Positions 3,242 through 11,754 of a DNA stretch of 18,874 nt are shown one piece after another. Made by a program: the position numbers and the translations under genes. Position 1 is the first letter of the stretch; the number at the start of each line of letters is the position of its first letter. The DNA lies in contig CBCSLL010001102.1 in NCBI GenBank assembly GCA_965140935.1, positions 25,393 to 44,266 of the forward strand, given 5' to 3'. Source of the DNA: Rotaria magnacalcarata (Eukaryota). A model generated the notes under the pieces. The model was not told where the DNA came from. It worked only from the letters and a program-made list of their open reading frames with translations, and made no database searches.

Positions 3242-3976
3242 CGGTTACTACACTGTAAAAAAAGTCATCATCCTATCGACTATACATACATGTAGCTTTC
3301 ACACATTAAACATAGCGCGTGTGCATTTCTTGAAACAAACTGAGCTATACATACGTATATCCACACTTCTAGGGTTAATTTTTTTCTAAAAAAAGTTAGT
3401 CATAATCAGTAAGCGTGAATGCGTGTTTATTCAATTAACCTCAGCTTGAAGTCTATTTTTTTTTCATCGAAGAATACAAAATATTCAAGAGTTTCTTGAT
3501 TAAAATAAGATAAGTATTAGATGATAGTCATTCGGAAATAATTGAAGCCGGTTAGAATCAGTTCTCAGAGATTAGTACGATCAATACCGACGAGTAAATG
3601 TTGAATGAACGGATGCCATGATGAATCTCTCAATTCTAATTGTCTACAATAGATACCATTACGTTGGCACGCCTGCTGATAGAATTCGATTGCCTGTTTT
3701 ATTTTTCCATTCATGTTAGCCGGTAAACAGTTGCAAAGATTGATCTTAATGATAGAAGAGAAAGTTGAATGAAGAATGAAAATACCGAAAAAAGAAATCG
3801 AATCACTTTGATTTGTTCAATACTAGTTAACATTTCAAACATATTCTGTTGTAATGATTGTGTTTTAAGAAAGAGCCACAGAAGAATGACACCAGTACCA
3901 ATCAAACGAAGAAGTTCGTTGCGCACATTCAAAGCTAATAAAATAAAATTCGTTTTTCTATACATCAATATGAAAA

Positions 3977-6926
3977 TCATCGAATATTACCGAGTGAATT
4001 AAAACCTTGTTCACGCAAATAATGTTCAAGACGATTAAAAATTTCACAATCGATATGAAGTACATCAGCTAACTGTTTATTCAATATAAATGAACCATCC
4101 TGTATTTGAATTCAATAAAAAACAAAAAATAAGTGCCGTAAATGATAATTTATACTACCTCATATTGAAGTTGCATAATCGCTTCAATCATAGTTTTTGT
4201 AGATTGAACATCTTTGAGCTTACCAAGAAGTGTATCATCGATTGTTTTACCTAAATTCATGAATTATCATAGTTTCTTTTGAGAATACTAACAAGACATC
4301 GACGAACCTAACGTAGTAGCAAGTTCACCCGAAAAATTATGTATTACAGTTTCGGTTTGGCCGTCAAGCTAACAAAATGAACAACAACAGAACAATCGAA
4401 TTACAACAAAATGATACGCTACGCACTGTGTACAATGGATCCTCAGGCTTGCGATCATAAACTGCAAAATAGAAAGAATTAAATATCATTTTTTTTTTGA
4501 AACACTGACCAGATTTAGCTTGGAAGTCTGCATCGCTTTGGACATAAGCAATATGTCGTTCAATGTCATCTACTGACGATCCTAGAAAAGTTTAAAATAT
4601 ATTTAAAGATCAAATGAAAACAAATCGAGTAATTAACGTACTTGCGACATCACCAGGGTTGATACTAATGGATGCTTTGGCACCTGAACGTGCTTCTTCG
4701 GCATCAACTCGAATTATACCATTCGCATCGATCTCCATTCTAATAGCTATTTCGAGCGTCTGAGCAGCAAAGTTACGTGTTAGGCCGCTCAGACACAGTT
4801 CTCCCAACAGTAGCTAAAATAGAAAAAAAACACTATAGAATGAAGTTTATCCATTTAGTTCACGACATACATTGTATTTTGTCAGATTATGTTCGCCTTC
4901 AAATACGCGAATAGAAGCTGTCGTTTGATAGGCATAAGCATTGGTGAATATTGAATAAAATTGAGTTCGCGTTGGAATCGTTGTATTACGACGAATAAGT
5001 ATGTGCATGCGACCGTGAGTATCTTCTACACCCAAGCCCAGTGCACAGACATCGAGGAGTAATAGGTCGTGGATGGATGCTTGTGATGTCACCTCAGCTT
5101 TGGTTGCCCTGTGAGAGATCAGCTTTTATTTTTATTATCATTTAAAATAATTTCACAAATAACGATTAACGATTAACATTTAACCGTTGCGCATATCTGT
5201 GAAATCTTACAGTACTTACGTTCTTCGTTGTTTTTTCTTTTTACGTGACATCATATGTAAGTCTGTACTTTCTGATTCGGCGTTTTGCATATCACTCTCA
5301 TCAAAGCCTCTCTAGAAGCGAGTGAAAGTTTTGCAAAAATATTGCATACTCAGTTACATACTTCAGCCACTTTGAACGCTTGCTTCATTGACGTATTCAT
5401 TCTTTTGCATGAGGTATCAGATAAGGTACTCATGGGAGCTTTCGGTTGTAGTACCTGAGCTGCCTGCATGTAGTAGCCACTACTACTACTACTATCACAA
5501 ACTGCTACAGATGCTTGCTTTGATGACGATGATGAAAATGAAGGAGAAAAAAGGTTTTTAAAATAATCTAGGCCAGATGACGATATTGGTGAGATACCTA
5601 GAATATATAAATTTATGCAACTATCAATCGATCCACAAGAATAATATGTTGAACTATGATAAATTATATTACTACCATAGATAAAGTAATGAAATATCGT
5701 GATCTTTTAGATTTGCGTTATTATATTTATCATATGTCTACTGAATGAAGATAAAGCTAAGATGATTGCATATCACTTGGAGACAGTGTTTCTTTAGAAA
5801 ATATTGTCTACCTGGCTTTGGTATGGAGCGAAGATGATTGCATAAACTACAGTCTACTATTATAAAAAATAGATTTAGAATTTTTTTAACTATAATTTTT
5901 CGTGATTATTTTTTGAATTTGTCTTAGGAAACTACATTATTTACAAAGGTATTACACATCTATTCAGAAACGACAGGTCTAATAGTAAACTACTGCAAAC
6001 TATCCACCGCATATTCATTATACATATAGCTTGCATTTATGAAATACAACATTATTTACATTTTGTATTCCGAGCTGTGCTTTGTATTTCAATAGGACAA
6101 CCAATAAGAGCAATCCTACGAAAAGCTAACTATATACTACGAAATATACCATAGACTTCTAATGGACGCAACCGATTCAAATATATTATGGCTACAATGA
6201 AACTTCAGGAGTAACATAAATCGAGGAAATGATACTGATTGCGAAAGAGAAGTAGTAGAAGTAGCGGCTTTTGCCATTTCTAGATATCGTAAGTTCATCG
6301 ATGATAGAAAATGGCAATGCCGAGTACAGAAATTAGTATTATTCTATTTGTGACTCACCAGCTGCTGATTGAGAATTCATTTGTGATGCCATATTCAGAA
6401 AAGTTGCGTTGTTATTATTGGTGTTGTTTATTATTTGATCTGCTGCATCCTTCCTTAGATTTGATGCATTAGCATTCATAAACATATTCTGAAGCTGTTC
6501 ACTAGTACCAGGGGCTGCCATATCAGAATAGGGCTTTGATGTATCCATTGAGGATGTCGGCGAAGAGAAAAGGTTTGATATTAAACCTCTATCTCTCAAT
6601 ATAGATCTCTTTTCTGCAAATTGTTGTCGGTATACCAGTAGCTGTTGCCGCTGCTGCTGCGGTGGTAGCGGTGGTGGTGACATTCTCATTGACAGTGGCA
6701 TTGGCGGTGGTGGCGGTGGTGGTAGTAGTGGTGACATTGACGTTGGCATTGGCGGTGCCGCTGATACTGACATTCTCATTGACATTGGTATTAGTGGTGC
6801 TGGCGGTGGTGATGACATTCTCATTGACAGTGCCATTGGCGGTGGTGGCGGTGGTGGTAGTAGTGGTGACATTGACAGTGCCATTGGCGGTGCCGCTGAT
6901 GATGACATTTTCATTGACATTGGCAT
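3977..6926 (-). CDS. Gene 2 (10 exons, 562 aa): N-terminal Pro/Met/Ser-rich tandem-repeat and Q/N/S-rich low-complexity region joined to an Hsp70-type substrate-binding domain (SBD-beta plus helical lid). No Hsp70 nucleotide-binding domain is present. Exons on the minus strand: 6359-6926, 5362-5597, 5220-5311, 4871-5108, 4642-4813, 4510-4581, 4427-4461, 4308-4368, 4159-4250, 3977-4099 (stop included)
   Basis: All junctions are canonical GT-AG with consistent phases, and the total of 1689 nt is 3 x 563. Translation of 4871-5108: ...TATKAEVTSQASIHDLLLLDVCALGLGVEDTHGRMHILIRRNTTIPTRTQFYSIFTNAYAYQTTASIRVFEGEHNLTKYN. Translation of 4642-4813: LLLGELCLSGLTRNFAAQTLEIAIRMEIDANGIIRVDAEEARSGAKASISINPGDVA. 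Translation of 4510-4581: RSSVDDIERHIAYVQSDADFQAKS. These align with the Hsp70 SBD (HSPA8-like DLLLLDV...KRNTTIPTK...VYEGER...LLG.FEL.GIPPAPRG.PQIEVTFDIDANGIL.V.A.DK.TG....ITI.NDKGRLSKE.IERMV). Introns are 38-63 nt, except the 761-nt first intron. The 3' lid exons are less certain. Confidence 0.7.
4642..4813 (-). CDS. Gene 2 exon 5: remainder of Hsp70 SBD-beta (LEIAIRMEIDANGIIRVDAEE...ISINPGDVA)
   Basis: ORF 4610..4807. Acceptor ttttag|CTACTG at 4813, donor GCAA|GTACGT at 4642. Confidence 0.75.
4871..5108 (-). CDS. Gene 2 exon 4: start of Hsp70 SBD-beta (DLLLLDV...RRNTTIPT...VFEGE)
   Basis: ORF 4847..5092 extended upstream to the acceptor ctctcacag|G at 5108. Donor AAT|GTATGT at 4871. Confidence 0.75.
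6359..6926 (-). CDS. Gene 2 exon 1: ATG at 6926; Pro/Met/Ser-rich repeats, then a Q-rich and N/S-rich low-complexity tail, ending at a G|GTGAGT donor
   Basis: ORF track 6339..6926 (MPMSMKMSSSAAPPMALSMSPLLPPPPPPPMALSMRMS...QQQRQQ...NNTNNNNATF...SQSAAG). The donor GTGAGT at 6358 splices in phase to 5597. No in-frame stop lies between the upstream acceptor-like ttaatag at about 6990 and the ATG. Confidence 0.6.
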
Positions 6927-6948
6927 TGGTGGTGCTGGCGGTGGTGGC
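6679..6948. repeat. Coding tandem duplication: 2 x 135 bp (each made of two ~67-bp subunits), encoding 45-aa repeats MSMRMSSPPPAPLIPMSMRMSVSAAPPMPTSMSPLLPPPPPPP on the minus strand
   Basis: gacattctcattgacagtg[g/c]cattggcggtggtggcggtggtggtagtagtggtgacattgac... recurs at 6679 and 6814. All three minus-strand frames and one plus-strand frame are open only because of the repeat (ORFs 6589..6966 and 6662..7006 are artefacts of it). Confidence 0.85.
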
Positions 6949-8874: not shown

Positions 8875-11110
8875 TCATAAATCGTTTATCTGTACAGTAC
8901 TTTTATTGATCTTTGAATTAGGTATAGGATAACTCGTCGGAGGAGACATCCGTGTGTCCGTGAATCGAGCAGTTCCAAAATCGCCGCCGCCGCCGCCGCC
9001 GCCGCCACCGGTAGCGTCCATAGTCGACTTGCCCCTCATTGAGTCACTCTTTCTATATTTCTCTAATGGCTCTGGTTTCAAATCACTTGATTTCTTCGAT
9101 GATATTTTCATTTCAAGGTTTTTTGCTAAAAATACAATCAAACATGAACTTCATGATATTGCTACTTATCGAAATATTAAATAGTCTATTCATTACTGAT
9201 AGAAAAGTGGTAGTATTCAATGACGTAAGCTTCTTCTTTCTTTGTGAAATATAGTTGCTTTGCACTGTCAAGTAGAGATTTAGATAAATATTATAATGCT
9301 GGGTTCGATATAATAAGAATAGTCCATATATATCAATCGCCATTAAATGAATAAACTGGCATATTCTTGCAATGATCAAAAAACTTTTCTTCTCTCGAGA
9401 CATCTTGATACTAAGATGGTGATATAAAAGTATCCCGGATACTTTCTTCAATAATTGATTAGTACTTATGTATTCTTCTTGGAATCAACGCGTATCGAGA
9501 TTTTGTAATTTACTCATTCAAGGAAACTTTACTTTCAAAGGCTATCTAATAATTATCTGAATGTCTACTAATGTTCCATAGCTATCGATAGGAAAACAGG
9601 AATGCCATATATCTGTCTATTGTGATTTCCTTTTCCTTTTTGACAATCAGATAGATATATTCGCTTTTTGAATGTTTTGATGACTAATGTCTAGTTGAGG
9701 ATGCGGGTTAACTCTTCCGAACTATAATTCTTTATGGTACATGTAAAATCTGGAGTTCACTAACAATAGATAAATCAGTTTGTTTGGACGAATTTATTGA
9801 TTCCGAAAATAAGTTCTAATCGTCCCTAACATAAGAGTTACAAAAATATTAAAATAATGAGAATATCACGAAAAATTTCACTTCTCCTAGTTTGTGTTAA
9901 TTGAGCTCCTTAAAAACAATTGAAACAAACGCTATTTCGTGAGTATTATTATAGTGCCTTTTGATGATTATAAAAGTTGTATTACTTACTAAAATTGATA
10001 TAGGAAGACTCATCCATAGTGTCTAACATACTGAAATCGAATCCGGAGTAGAGATCAACGTCTGATTCTGTCGACTGTAACTGTTGCGATTCTGACGGCA
10101 CTTCAACTGAAGGAATATTCTCTAAAAACGAATGCAATACATTCAACCATGAGTACAAGCACATAATCTAAGTGCTTTTTGAAAAGCAAAACATTATTAA
10201 AAAAATGATCTTTCTCTAGTATTATATTCAAAGCTTCCTATTTTCATATTAATCATGAACAAAAACACTTAATACTGCATAGTTATATTTTTCTACAAGA
10301 AATCAGTAGTATATTTTGGTTCTTTAATCGGTATTTAAGTTGCGTAGTTAATTACACTGTAAATTGACTTGGTTTTGAACATCATTCTTATACTCAAGCA
10401 GTATTTTATTCCTTTTATTTTGTTTTTTTAAGTACTCCAGAAATGCAGCAAGGATGTAATTAATATATTATAACTTAGAGTTATTCATATACAATGTACA
10501 ATATATCTGATAAAGTTCATGGAATACAAACGTGTAAATTTCTACCCTACATATTTTAAGCCTGCCTTTAGATCATGTTTCACAGATGTTGAATAACTTA
10601 CCACATCTAGAATAGGATGCGCCGCCATCGTCGAACAAACTGAATCCCATATCCTCGCCTTCATCTTCTAACGCAATCGATTTTGACGGCAGTTCAATTG
10701 AACTCGTTAGTATAGGTATACGCATGGATTCTAAAATTAAGAAGAGAAAATTTTAACGAACAATAGAAATAAATAATATATAGCGTTTTGAAAAATTCAG
10801 CATTAAAATATTTTACTCTCTACTACGACATCCAAAGTCTCTTCTGTCTGAAGTAAATATTGGGCAATGAATTTCAATATATATCTATTGATATATTATC
10901 TGTAGTAAATCTAATAAAAGCCGTGAGTTTCACACGTGTCTCAATTTCTACCATATATACATTAACCTTCTTTGGATACCATATTTCGCAAAATTTGCAT
11001 AACTCACCAGATACAGTACAATCGATGTCGTACAACAGGCCGGAGTCCAAATCCCCCTCGTCGCCGTCCTCGAATGCAGACAATTTTGATGGTAGTACGA
11101 CAGAATTCAT
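8875..11110 (-). CDS. Gene 3 (4 exons, 204 aa): small acidic protein with three tandem paralogous exon modules, each carrying a ribosomal-P-stalk-tail-like acidic/aromatic motif, followed by a Lys-rich segment, a Gly9 tract and a C-terminal tail. Exons: 11008-11110 (ATG), 10602-10730, 9990-10121, 8875-9125 (stop included)
   Basis: Exon 1: MNSVVLPSKLSAFEDGDEGDLDSGLLYDIDCTVS, donor G|GTGAGT. Exon 2: (E)SMRIPILTSSIELPSKSIALEDEGEDMGFSLFDDGGASYSRC, acceptor ttaattttag and donor G|GTAAGT. Exon 3: (E)NIPSVEVPSESQQLQSTESDVDLYSGFDFSMLDTMDESSYINF, acceptor tcgtttttag and donor A|GTAAGT. Exon 4: (T)KNLEMKISSKKSSDLKPEPLEKYRKSDSMRGKSTMDATGGGGGGGGGDFGTARFTDTRMSPPTSYPIPNSKINKSTVQINDL*. All exon ends are in phase 1 and the total of 615 nt is 3 x 205. 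Exon 4 being terminal, and there being no extra exon inside the 864-nt intron, is less certain. Confidence 0.55.
8980..9006. repeat. (GCC)n / (CCG)n trinucleotide tract, encoding Gly9 of gene 3 on the minus strand
   Basis: cgccgccgccgccgccgccgccaccgg. GC-rich microsatellite in an AT-rich context. Confidence 0.8.
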
Positions 11111-11598
11111 TGCCAACTTATACCTCACTGCTAAAATCGAATAGAGAAAGTTTCAAACAAAACTAGATACAAATAACTGATGCAATTTAAAAAAAAGCTA
11201 AGGCTATAAAAGGAATCGATTGTCTTTATGATTGTTGAACTGTTTTTTTTCCCATAAAGCAGACATGACTAGATGGAACTGGGCGATCTGGTTTGAAATA
11301 TTAATACGGGAGCTGTTTGATGGAGGCTTCTTAGAAAAAAACAGTAGTTCCTGCTTTTTATATAAATTTGTTGAAAACTGTTTTAGCCAAGAAAAAGAAA
11401 GAAATTTTCTATGAATTTCATTTGAAAAAGCTGTTATCATACTATTGGTACGGTGAAATTGTGAAGCATGATGAAACTTCTAATATGGTAGAAGAGAAGA
11501 TCCATCATGTCTCAACTTATGAATTTTAATCTCATATTAACGTTTGACAGGATTCAAATTCATTCGCTCACGCTGCTATAGAAAATCTCTCACGAAAA

Positions 11599-11754
11599 AT
11601 GCATCACTTGCCTGATGAAGAAGCCTCGTTATCACCAAATGAGTCCCAGCACACATCATCTGCATCCGCTGATTCTTCTGATGTTGACGCAGTTGACAAT
11701 CGTTTTCTGCAAGATGTAGGCATCTCTAAAAGCAAATGCAGAATATTTCGATGA
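11599..11754 (+). CDS. Diverged, inverted (plus-strand) copy of the gene-3 module: 51-codon ORF MHHLPDEEASLSPNESQHTSSASADSSDVDAVDNRFLQD(VGISKSKCRIFR*). It may be the first exon of a paralogous plus-strand gene (possible donor CAAGAT|GTAGGC at 11716) or a decaying duplicate
   Basis: Protein and nucleotide similarity to module 3 (PSESQQLQSTESDVDLYSGFDF versus PNESQHTSSASADSSDVDAVDNRF). It lies head-to-head with gene 3 exon 1, about 490 bp away. Confidence 0.3.
   Translation: MHHLPDEEASLSPNESQHTSSASADSSDVDAVDNRFLQDVGISKSKCRIFR

Follow-up and report, generated by a model that had tools for sequence, protein, structure and literature searches.

Acidic module exons in the probable tether of a bdelloid PARP4 orthologue

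PARP4 is anchored inside the vault by its MINT domain, and the C-terminal tail of the ribosomal stalk (P-stalk) proteins P0, P1 and P2 is a known docking peptide. Both systems bear on an 18,874-nucleotide (nt) stretch of DNA from the bdelloid rotifer Rotaria magnacalcarata (assembly GCA_965140935.1, contig CBCSLL010001102.1, positions 25,393 to 44,266), here called the window. It contains a series of short acidic exons, the modules, which to judge from exon order, phase and homology are most likely part of a flexible linker in a bdelloid PARP4 gene and not of a small free protein.

In human PARP4, extended disordered stretches are described as separating the folded domains, and a MINT anchor forms the C-terminus (PMC12280208). 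Among bdelloids, MVP genes have been reported in Adineta vaga, and the PARP and MVP gene sets are expanded and respond to desiccation and radiation (PMC10809525). The rotifer locus shares with human PARP4 (PDB entries 11jf, 9bw6, 9bw7 and 8swy) a collinear homology that covers the catalytic, VIT-vWA and C-terminal MINT parts, as well as a long disordered region between vWA and MINT. It differs in its predicted linker, where a series of acidic motif exons, a Pro-rich exon with a repeat and, directly before the MINT-like domain, an Hsp70-type domain have been added. To our knowledge, a PARP4 that combines Hsp70-type substrate-binding and MINT domains has not been described. An initial annotation of the window had instead joined the modules into a gene of their own, encoding a soluble acidic protein of 204 amino acids (aa) with three stalk-like tails and a poly-Gly hinge.

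PARP4 homology and gene structure

Coordinates refer to the window throughout, and the gene, its modules and its linker exons all lie on the minus strand. The window is rich in A+T, with about 32% G+C and eukaryotic introns. Exons for the PARP catalytic, VIT and vWA domains (16382-13160) make up the 5' part of the gene, which extends further upstream to about 18200. These domains are recognized by Pfam (PARP, 4.7e-13; VIT, 6.6e-26; VWA, 1.9e-6), and the nearest relatives of the large open reading frames (ORFs) that encode them are Rotaria proteins. Against the PDB, the catalytic ORF matches human PARP4 451-543 (E=1.7e-20), which accounts for its sole matches at E<=1e-5. The VIT-vWA ORF matches human PARP4 658-923 (E=2.4e-54), and its only other match is ITIH4 (7e-4). 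At the opposite end of the gene, the exons at 4461-3565 run in a continuous frame through a MINT-like (vault-anchoring) domain to the terminal stop codon. Their spliced C-terminal 189 residues match human PARP4 1576-1703 in a PDB-wide phmmer search (E=2.1e-4) and in a pairwise BLASTP comparison (27% over 130 aa, E=3e-7), the human C-terminal sequence having been checked against PDB entry 11jf_P. The three PARP4-matching parts of the locus are collinear with the human protein.

The exons between these parts were compared across eight syntenic loci, taken from genomes of related bdelloids and from metagenome contigs (L002-L007, L009 and L010); L009 belongs to Rotaria sp. Silwood1, and L007 is a metagenomic relative. 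As far as each contig reaches (those of L005 and L007 end before the 3' part), the loci share one order: PARP-VIT-vWA, exon A (..ATTEERQAL..), exon A2, linker exons, one or more acidic modules, the orthologue of linker exon 4, exon 5 with more linker exons, and the Hsp70-type substrate-binding domain. Exons A (13097-13001) and A2 (12942-12917) are conserved in all loci and link the vWA exon to the phase-1 module array. The vWA ORF ends at a phase-1 donor (AAC G/GTATGT, 13160) that joins exon A in frame, and A2 ends in phase 1, which fits any module acceptor.

Existing gene models support this path. NCBI models P0002, P0042 and P0053 splice vWA to exon A (..KM.N/D..ATTEERQ). The Silwood1 model P0053 starts at the C-terminal end of vWA, takes in exons A, A2, B and C, and then reaches two modules, ..KDEDYDMIGFDYFDDGMSTASYS.. 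and ..DDEDDDHGLDIFGDYTPATSYS.. (u1 and u2). Together with P0051 and P0052, these models bridge most junctions. Exon A of L005 lacks a methionine, as does the substrate-binding-domain exon of the window ahead of its domain; both are therefore internal exons. When 22 exons are spliced across 21 introns (20 GT-AG and one GC-AG), they yield 1,180 codons without an internal stop, from 13553 to the stop codon at 3565. This frame runs from vWA through all modules, the Gly9 exon, the Pro-rich exon and the Hsp70-type domain into the MINT-like domain. Exon B was omitted from the window gene model. It spans 81 nt in Silwood1 (YACYKLHFKGLAKTQRLEKMRNIMAS); its orthologue in the window (12811-12760, minus strand) spans 52 nt in the wrong phase, and the exon was probably lost or skipped in R. 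magnacalcarata.

Silwood1 carries extra PARP4-like copies, some of them truncated. L001 10430-11923 is a vWA-only fragment without downstream synteny, and L009 22882-23165 holds another PARP catalytic segment, which matches the window at 85% identity. Such copies fit an expanded PARP family. In R. magnacalcarata itself, a further contig of 620 bp (L011) is 100% identical to window 9006-8387. An Rfam scan of the whole window returned no family.

The acidic modules, their duplication and their conservation

Three module exons, each in phase 1 at both ends, follow one another in the window: M1 (11130-11008; 123 nt; ..VRYKLAMNSVVLPSKLSAFEDGDEGDLDSGLLYDIDCTVS), M2 (10730-10602; 129 nt; ..IELPSKSIALEDEGEDMGFSLFDDGGASYSRC) and M3 (10121-9990; 132 nt; ..VEVPSESQQLQSTESDVDLYSGFDFSMLDTMDESSYINF). 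The initial annotation had placed its exons at 11110-11008, 10730-10602, 10121-9990 and 9125-8875, and these do have GT/AG boundaries, are all in phase 1 and splice to the quoted 204 aa, including Gly9. Its description of three paralogous coding exons is likewise borne out by duplication at the DNA level, open frames and intact splice sites. At the base composition of the window, a frame of 41-44 codons stays open by chance with a probability of about 0.04, and M1, M2 and M3 do so jointly with a probability of about 6e-5. These open frames and the paralogy of the DNA therefore establish the module observation as real. M1 is bounded by the acceptor gattttag/ and the donor /gtgagt. Its ttttag acceptor at 11131 is in phase 1 and lies 20 nt upstream of the ATG at 11110, with the frame open across, so that this ATG would be internal to M1 and need not be a start codon.

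A candidate fourth module, M0 (11725-11612; 114 nt, phase 1-1; EMPTSCRKRLSTASTSEESADADDVCWDSFGDNEASSS, equivalent to EESADADDVCWDSFGDNE), has an open frame and a ttttag acceptor, and the intron that follows it is of the GC-AG class (donor AG/GCAAGT at 11612/11611). The likeness of M0 to the other modules is weak (z 2.3-3.6; tblastn E=0.59), and it is the least certain part of the gene model.

Modules 1-3 are low in complexity and highly acidic (pI 4.05, net charge -23), with 27 Asp and Glu among 120 residues. They follow a common design in which an acidic run precedes an alternating hydrophobic plug, Phi-x-Phi-[S/G]-Phi-Phi-D, often accompanied by (A/E)-S-S-Y. The hydrophobic/aromatic pattern is the best-conserved part of each module. 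On reading the sequences, the same pairing of an acidic run with bulky hydrophobic residues in a disordered context is seen in activation-domain-like and ear/appendage-binding motifs. By eye, the clathrin box, LIR, FFAT, DxxLL and B56 motifs were also compared, and none fits all copies. The modules belong to no Pfam family, and the 204-aa model gave only a sub-threshold DUF6429 match in Pfam and no match at E<=0.01 among 5.8 billion clusters. A profile of the four window modules, searched against 1.84 billion representative sequences, retrieved two repetitive junk proteins and no P proteins.

The modules arose by duplication. In self-blastn, the M1 unit (11194-10866) aligns with the M2 unit (10795-10462; 64% over 341 nt, E=2e-26), and the M2 unit (10911-10552) aligns with the M3 unit (10304-9944; E=2e-5). 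Both matches reach into the intron flanks; it was therefore exon-plus-intron units that were duplicated in tandem. A survey of related genomes found the multi-module layout in two other Rotaria-like genomes, with three modules in Silwood1 (117, 123 and 141 nt) and at least two in L007 (120 and 135 nt), all of them phase 1-1 with GT-AG introns. The more distant L002/L003, L005 and L006 have a single module (..ELPLKSQESEDEQDELDLSFLDCMAESSYLEF..).

Three module types can be distinguished. Type 1 comprises M1 (LPSKLSAFEDGDEGDLDSGLLYDID) and v2 of L007 (PLPSMAAKKEAFLLEDDEWGDDIDLLDS), whereas type 2 comprises M2 (EDEGEDMGFSLFDDGGASYS), v1 of L007 (ESEDEEMGFSLFDDD) and u1 of Silwood1 (DEDYDMIGFDYFDDGMSTASYS). 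Neither type occurs in the single-module loci, and u2 of Silwood1 fits no type clearly. Type 3 comprises M3 and u3 of Silwood1 and is present in the single-module loci, L007 being outside this comparison; exons orthologous to M3 are found in L002, L003, L005, L006 and L009 (tblastn E 2e-5 to 6e-4). A plausible history is that an ancestral single type-3 module was duplicated with its intron flanks into three types. All three would have been kept in the window, with types 1 and 2 seen in L007 and three modules in Silwood1 (u1 of type 2, u3 of type 3 and u2 unplaced).

Between species, the proportion of nonsynonymous differences (pN) is below that of synonymous differences (pS) for every module pair, with pS near saturation. 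M1 and v2 are identical at 16/35 aa (pS 0.74, pN 0.44), M2 and u1 at 20/35 aa (pS 0.83), and M2 and v1, with pS 0.90 and pN 0.40, retain MGFSLFDD. For M3 and u3, dN/dS is 0.40. All these comparisons are supportive, not decisive, as they are drawn from about 35 codons, saturated dS and protein-guided alignments.

Conservation extends into the introns. About 100 nt of intron lie 3' of M1 (10908-11007), M2 (10502-10601), u1, u2 and v1 (counterparts at L009 12920-13019 and 13501-13600 and at L007 16173-16272) that are 65-73% identical in most pairs and 55-62% in the rest. This intron flank is more conserved than the synonymous sites of the exons (exon pS 0.6-0.9). It yielded neither a consensus RNA structure nor an Rfam match, and it may be a splicing-regulatory element. 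Regulated cassette exons are classically marked by symmetric phase in combination with conserved intron flanks; from this pairing alternative inclusion of the modules is inferred, and the modules are probably alternatively spliced cassettes. Skipping any module or combination of modules preserves the reading frame. Like described duplicated symmetric cassette exons, the modules have lengths divisible by three, identical phases, duplicated exon-plus-flank units and conserved intron flanks. They differ from mutually exclusive cassettes, whose docking/selector RNA pairing was not found at the module array. Mutually exclusive splicing by such pairing was rejected, the search having returned just AT-rich chance inverted repeats and no consensus structure in the flanks.

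The Hsp70-type domain and the P-stalk tail as possible counterparts of the modules

The Hsp70-type substrate-binding domain is encoded by three exons (5108-4871, 4813-4642 and 4581-4510) and matches Pfam HSP70 at E=1.8e-24 over profile positions 370-510 of 599. Compared with canonical Hsp70 (PF00012), its beta-sandwich is well preserved, including the DLLLLDV interdomain linker. In contrast to Hsp70, it has no nucleotide-binding domain, the exons upstream of 5108 being low-complexity linker; it keeps only the start of the lid, lacks EEVD and is embedded in a PARP4 chain. Linker exons 6 and 7 (5597-5362 and 5311-5220) lead into the domain through the phase-2 donor of exon 7 (AGAAC/GTAAGT; junction 5220/5108), and the same phase-2 junction is present in Silwood1. 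The MINT-like domain follows this ATPase-less domain immediately and in frame, and the stretch that covers both is continuous across eight introns of 48-62 nt. What had been described as an Hsp70 gene 2 kb away begins at 5108, 3.8 kb downstream, has no start codon of its own and is apparently part of the same gene.

The presence of this domain raises the prospect that the modules act in cis as pseudo-substrates, whose cores LDLSFLD, MGFSLFD and GLLYDID would fill and gate the Hsp70-type groove. Peptides with alternating hydrophobic residues are suited to lie as extended strands in the groove of an Hsp70, the well-preserved domain has no ATPase domain to drive release, and module and domain co-occur in the window, L002, L003, L006 and L009. 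However, classical Hsp70/DnaK sites prefer basic, not acidic, flanks, and paralogues of the L004 type keep the domain with calmodulin in place of the module. Gating of the groove by the modules is therefore regarded as doubtful.

The calmodulin (EF-hand) exons stand at the module position in L004 (11546-12220), in P0042 of Rotaria sp. Silwood2 and in P0051 of R. sordida. In the NCBI models they appear as part of the PARP4 linker of such paralogues. They represent either a nested gene or a true fusion. Their junction is in phase 0, against phase 1 for the modules, so the two kinds of exon are not homologous. Descent of the module from an EF-hand exon, suggested by the FSLFD string and the shared position, was rejected on this difference in phase and on the misfit of the DxDxDGxIxxxE loop in DDGGASYSRCEN.

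A second counterpart is the tail of P0, P1 and P2 (..EESDDDMGF[G/S]LFD). Type-2 modules share its acidic run and MGFSLFD, with eight identical residues relative to plant P1/P2 and 24 alignable residues in the L007 copy. They differ from the P proteins in that the motif is internal, the N-terminal dimerisation domain and Ala/Gly hinge are missing, and only one of three to four modules is P-like. The core reads EDMGFSLFDD in the window, EEMGFSLFDD in L007 and DMIGFDYFDD in Silwood1. The M2 8-mer DMGFSLFD is identical to the wheat P1 tail, with a database E of 2.7, and a PDZ protein scores higher. For v1 of L007, all five PDB matches are P1/P2 C-termini, the best being wheat P2 (24 residues, E=0.0083).

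Shuffling tests against EESDDDMGFGLFD separate the modules further. M2, v1 and u1 exceed what their composition would give, as does u2 with a 13-mer; the P-tail alignment score was reached by no shuffle of M2 or v1 and by 3 of 1,000 shuffles of u1. M0, M1, M3, u3 and v2 show no P-tail likeness beyond composition in these tests, and the single-copy type-3 modules are marginal. An acidic run followed by MGF[G/S]LFD is present in M2 and v1 and partly in u1, and is absent from M0, M1, M3, u3 and v2. The 204-aa model has no match to Pfam PF00428 (Ribosomal_60s) at E<=1. The significance of the type-2 likeness is borderline. Of the three stalk-like tails initially described, the middle one stands, being conserved in L007 and Silwood1, whereas M1 and M3 do not go beyond composition.

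Short identities of this kind also arise elsewhere. A metagenome scan for [MI]GF[SD][LY]FDD returned 384 matching stretches, among them two apparent relatives that proved to be phage- or bacterium-like tail-fibre ORFs with NAMGFSLFDDGGSGY (L012 1098-1148; L013 1759-1809). These ORFs share the 10-mer MGFSLFDDGG with M2. They were rejected as relatives of the module, chance matches of this sort being about what 384 pattern matches lead one to expect.

Within the PARP4 gene structure, with which it is compatible, the type-2 module (peptide EDEGEDMGFSLFDDGG; EDMGFSLFDD) could be a true mimic of the P-stalk tail, through which P-tail readers (eEF2, eEF1A, GCN2 or ribosome-inactivating toxins) would be drawn to the ADP-ribosyltransferase or to the vault. 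The identity with plant P1/P2 tails, the exclusive P1/P2 matches of the L007 copy and the shuffling results speak for it, as does the retention of MGFSLFDD in two species despite saturated synonymous sites, with IGFDYFDD in Silwood1. Nevertheless, the motif has no free C-terminus, since MGFSLFDD is followed by GGASYSRC within its exon and then by more than 800 codons. The window copy falls below a PDZ protein, its 10-mer recurs by chance in an unrelated phage-like ORF, types 1 and 3 are not P-like, Ribosomal_60s is unmatched, and the module profile retrieves no P proteins. Because the type-2 module is paralogous to modules that are not P-like, convergence or drift within the acidic run plus hydrophobic plug is the simpler account of its likeness, and true mimicry is considered unlikely. 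The mimic or decoy idea of the initial annotation would concern a single motif inside a large enzyme, and three free C-terminal tails would play no part in it. A more specific version, in which a bdelloid vault PARP4 captures P-tail readers (eEF2, eEF1A, GCN2) through this internal copy, either for its diphtheria-toxin-like ADP-ribosyltransferase domain or for sequestration in the vault under stress, is very unlikely; if true, it would be the cell's own parallel to the control of translation factors by toxins.

Exon 4, the remaining accounts and the probable PARP4 tether

Downstream of the modules, linker exon 4 (9125-8901; 225 nt, phase 1-1) is basic, unlike the acidic modules 1-3, and holds Gly9. 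The earlier model had read through its donor to a stop at 8875, whereas in the present model that stop codon (8877-8875) falls within a 59-nt intron (8900-8842). The exon-4 donor reads AAAA/GTACTG in the window, G/GTAATG in L004, L005, L006 and L009, and G/GTAAAA in L002/L003; donor and acceptor are aligned in position and phase across six related loci (L002-L006 and L009). The exons 3' of the earlier stop stay in frame and are conserved. Exons 5 and 5b (8841-8773 and 8716-8543), both phase 1-1 and separated by a 56-nt intron, are annotated in the R. magnacalcarata NCBI model P0052, which lies on contig L011, with the junction RTGRSL/QSFAAP.

Further downstream is the Pro-rich linker exon (6994-6359; 636 nt, phase 1-1), which contains a 135-nt tandem repeat (2.1 copies, 92% match, 6661-6946). 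Its G+C content is 0.50 against a background of 0.32, and it looks greatly expanded relative to L002 and L006. The string RMSPPTSYPI was tried as an orthology anchor to L002 and rejected as not collinear, being a chance or repeated short motif. M0-M3 and exons 4, 5, 5b and Pro are all in phase 1 at both ends, and A2 ends in phase 1; duplication, loss or skipping of exons in this linker is therefore frame-neutral.

The poly-Gly hinge described earlier can be kept only in part. Gly9 is present, encoded by a (GGC)n microsatellite at 8982-9010 (TRF: period 3, 9.7 copies), and no poly-Gly run occupies its place in the orthologues examined, L005 and L009. The microsatellite is probably recent and length-polymorphic, and the poly-Gly run would accordingly not be a designed hinge.

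These features bear directly on the proposal of an independent gene, reading from ATG 11110 to the stop at 8875 and encoding a soluble 204-aa acidic protein that acts as a stalk-tail mimic or decoy. Four exons in frame with a Met and a stop, a stop-bypassing exon-4 donor that is weak in this species, an AATAAA at about 8907-8902 and large introns that leave room for an internal promoter are all in its favor. Yet a phase-1 acceptor belonging to M1 precedes the ATG by 20 nt, the frame staying open from one to the other, and the modules of L006, L002 and L005 lack a Met and stand among dense coding exons with introns of about 60 nt. In addition, P0053 joins modules to the vWA C-terminus, the exons after the supposed stop are in frame and conserved, and no similar protein was found in the 5.8 billion clusters. 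The soluble protein thus gives way to the 1,180-codon PARP4 frame, into which its exons fit with its ATG internal and its stop inside an intron with a conserved donor, and its existence as a separate gene is improbable.

Two further accounts keep the modules within the PARP4 gene and assign them other fates. The acidic, Ser- and Tyr-rich modules may serve mainly as ADP-ribose acceptors in cis, as a PARP automodification region. Asp and Glu are common PARP acceptor residues, they are abundant in the modules alongside the conserved S-S-Y element, and an ADP-ribosyltransferase domain lies in the same chain; a role confined to accepting ADP-ribose leaves the conserved hydrophobic/aromatic pattern unexplained and is given little credence. 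That M0, M1 and M2 are untranslated relics decaying in an enlarged intron, with M3 the only exon in use, would agree with the long introns, the decayed exon B, the weak similarity and GC donor of M0 and the omission of the module exons by R. magnacalcarata gene predictors, but is rendered quite improbable by open frames, lengths in multiples of three, intact splice sites, protein-level conservation of types 1 and 2 in L007 and L009 with pN < pS, conserved intron flanks and the inclusion of u1 and u2 in P0053.

Several observations weigh against placing the modules in a PARP4 linker. The exon-4 donor is weak in the window, the earlier stop lies only 24 nt further on and M1 contains an in-frame ATG. 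A short product from 11110 is conceivable in this species, with nothing positive in its support. Splice sites were picked to suit frame and conservation, from sequence alone, and the dN/dS values have the limits given above. In the NCBI annotation of Silwood1, the locus is split among three models (PARP-VIT-vWA, P0053 and an HSP70 model). Introns next to the modules measure 277-1548 nt and are 5-25 times longer than those in the rest of the gene (48-62 nt), and the degenerate exon B points to some local decay. Finally, the docking function of the modules and their partner are pure inference.

Taken as a whole, the account in which the modules are cassette exons of a PARP4 tether and bear docking motifs is nevertheless considered likely. 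The modules would be internal, symmetric phase 1-1 cassettes of the R. magnacalcarata PARP4 orthologue, and would encode part of the long disordered stretch that tethers the PARP-VIT-vWA head to the C-terminal part. Each may display a short linear docking motif for a hydrophobic, basic-flanked pocket, provided in trans or by the neighboring substrate-binding domain, and duplication of exons, probably along with cassette splicing, could set how many motifs are displayed. Candidate readers are the in-cis Hsp70-type domain, P-tail readers such as eEF2, and vault cargo; an ADP-ribose acceptor role is the other candidate.

The locus also illustrates two pitfalls of annotation. Gene predictors break up long genes that are rich in disordered sequence, and a match of 8-10 residues can mislead by itself, as the tail-fibre 10-mer warns. 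A lineage-specific PARP4 variant with an expanded, motif-bearing linker is a better description of this locus than a small protein. On the predicted gene model, it is an undescribed PARP4 architecture in which the vault tether would have gained a peptide-binding domain of the Hsp70 type together with a conserved series of putative acidic docking motifs, among them one that resembles the P-stalk tail. The linear motifs of this tether offer concrete baits for the cargo of PARP4 or of the vault.

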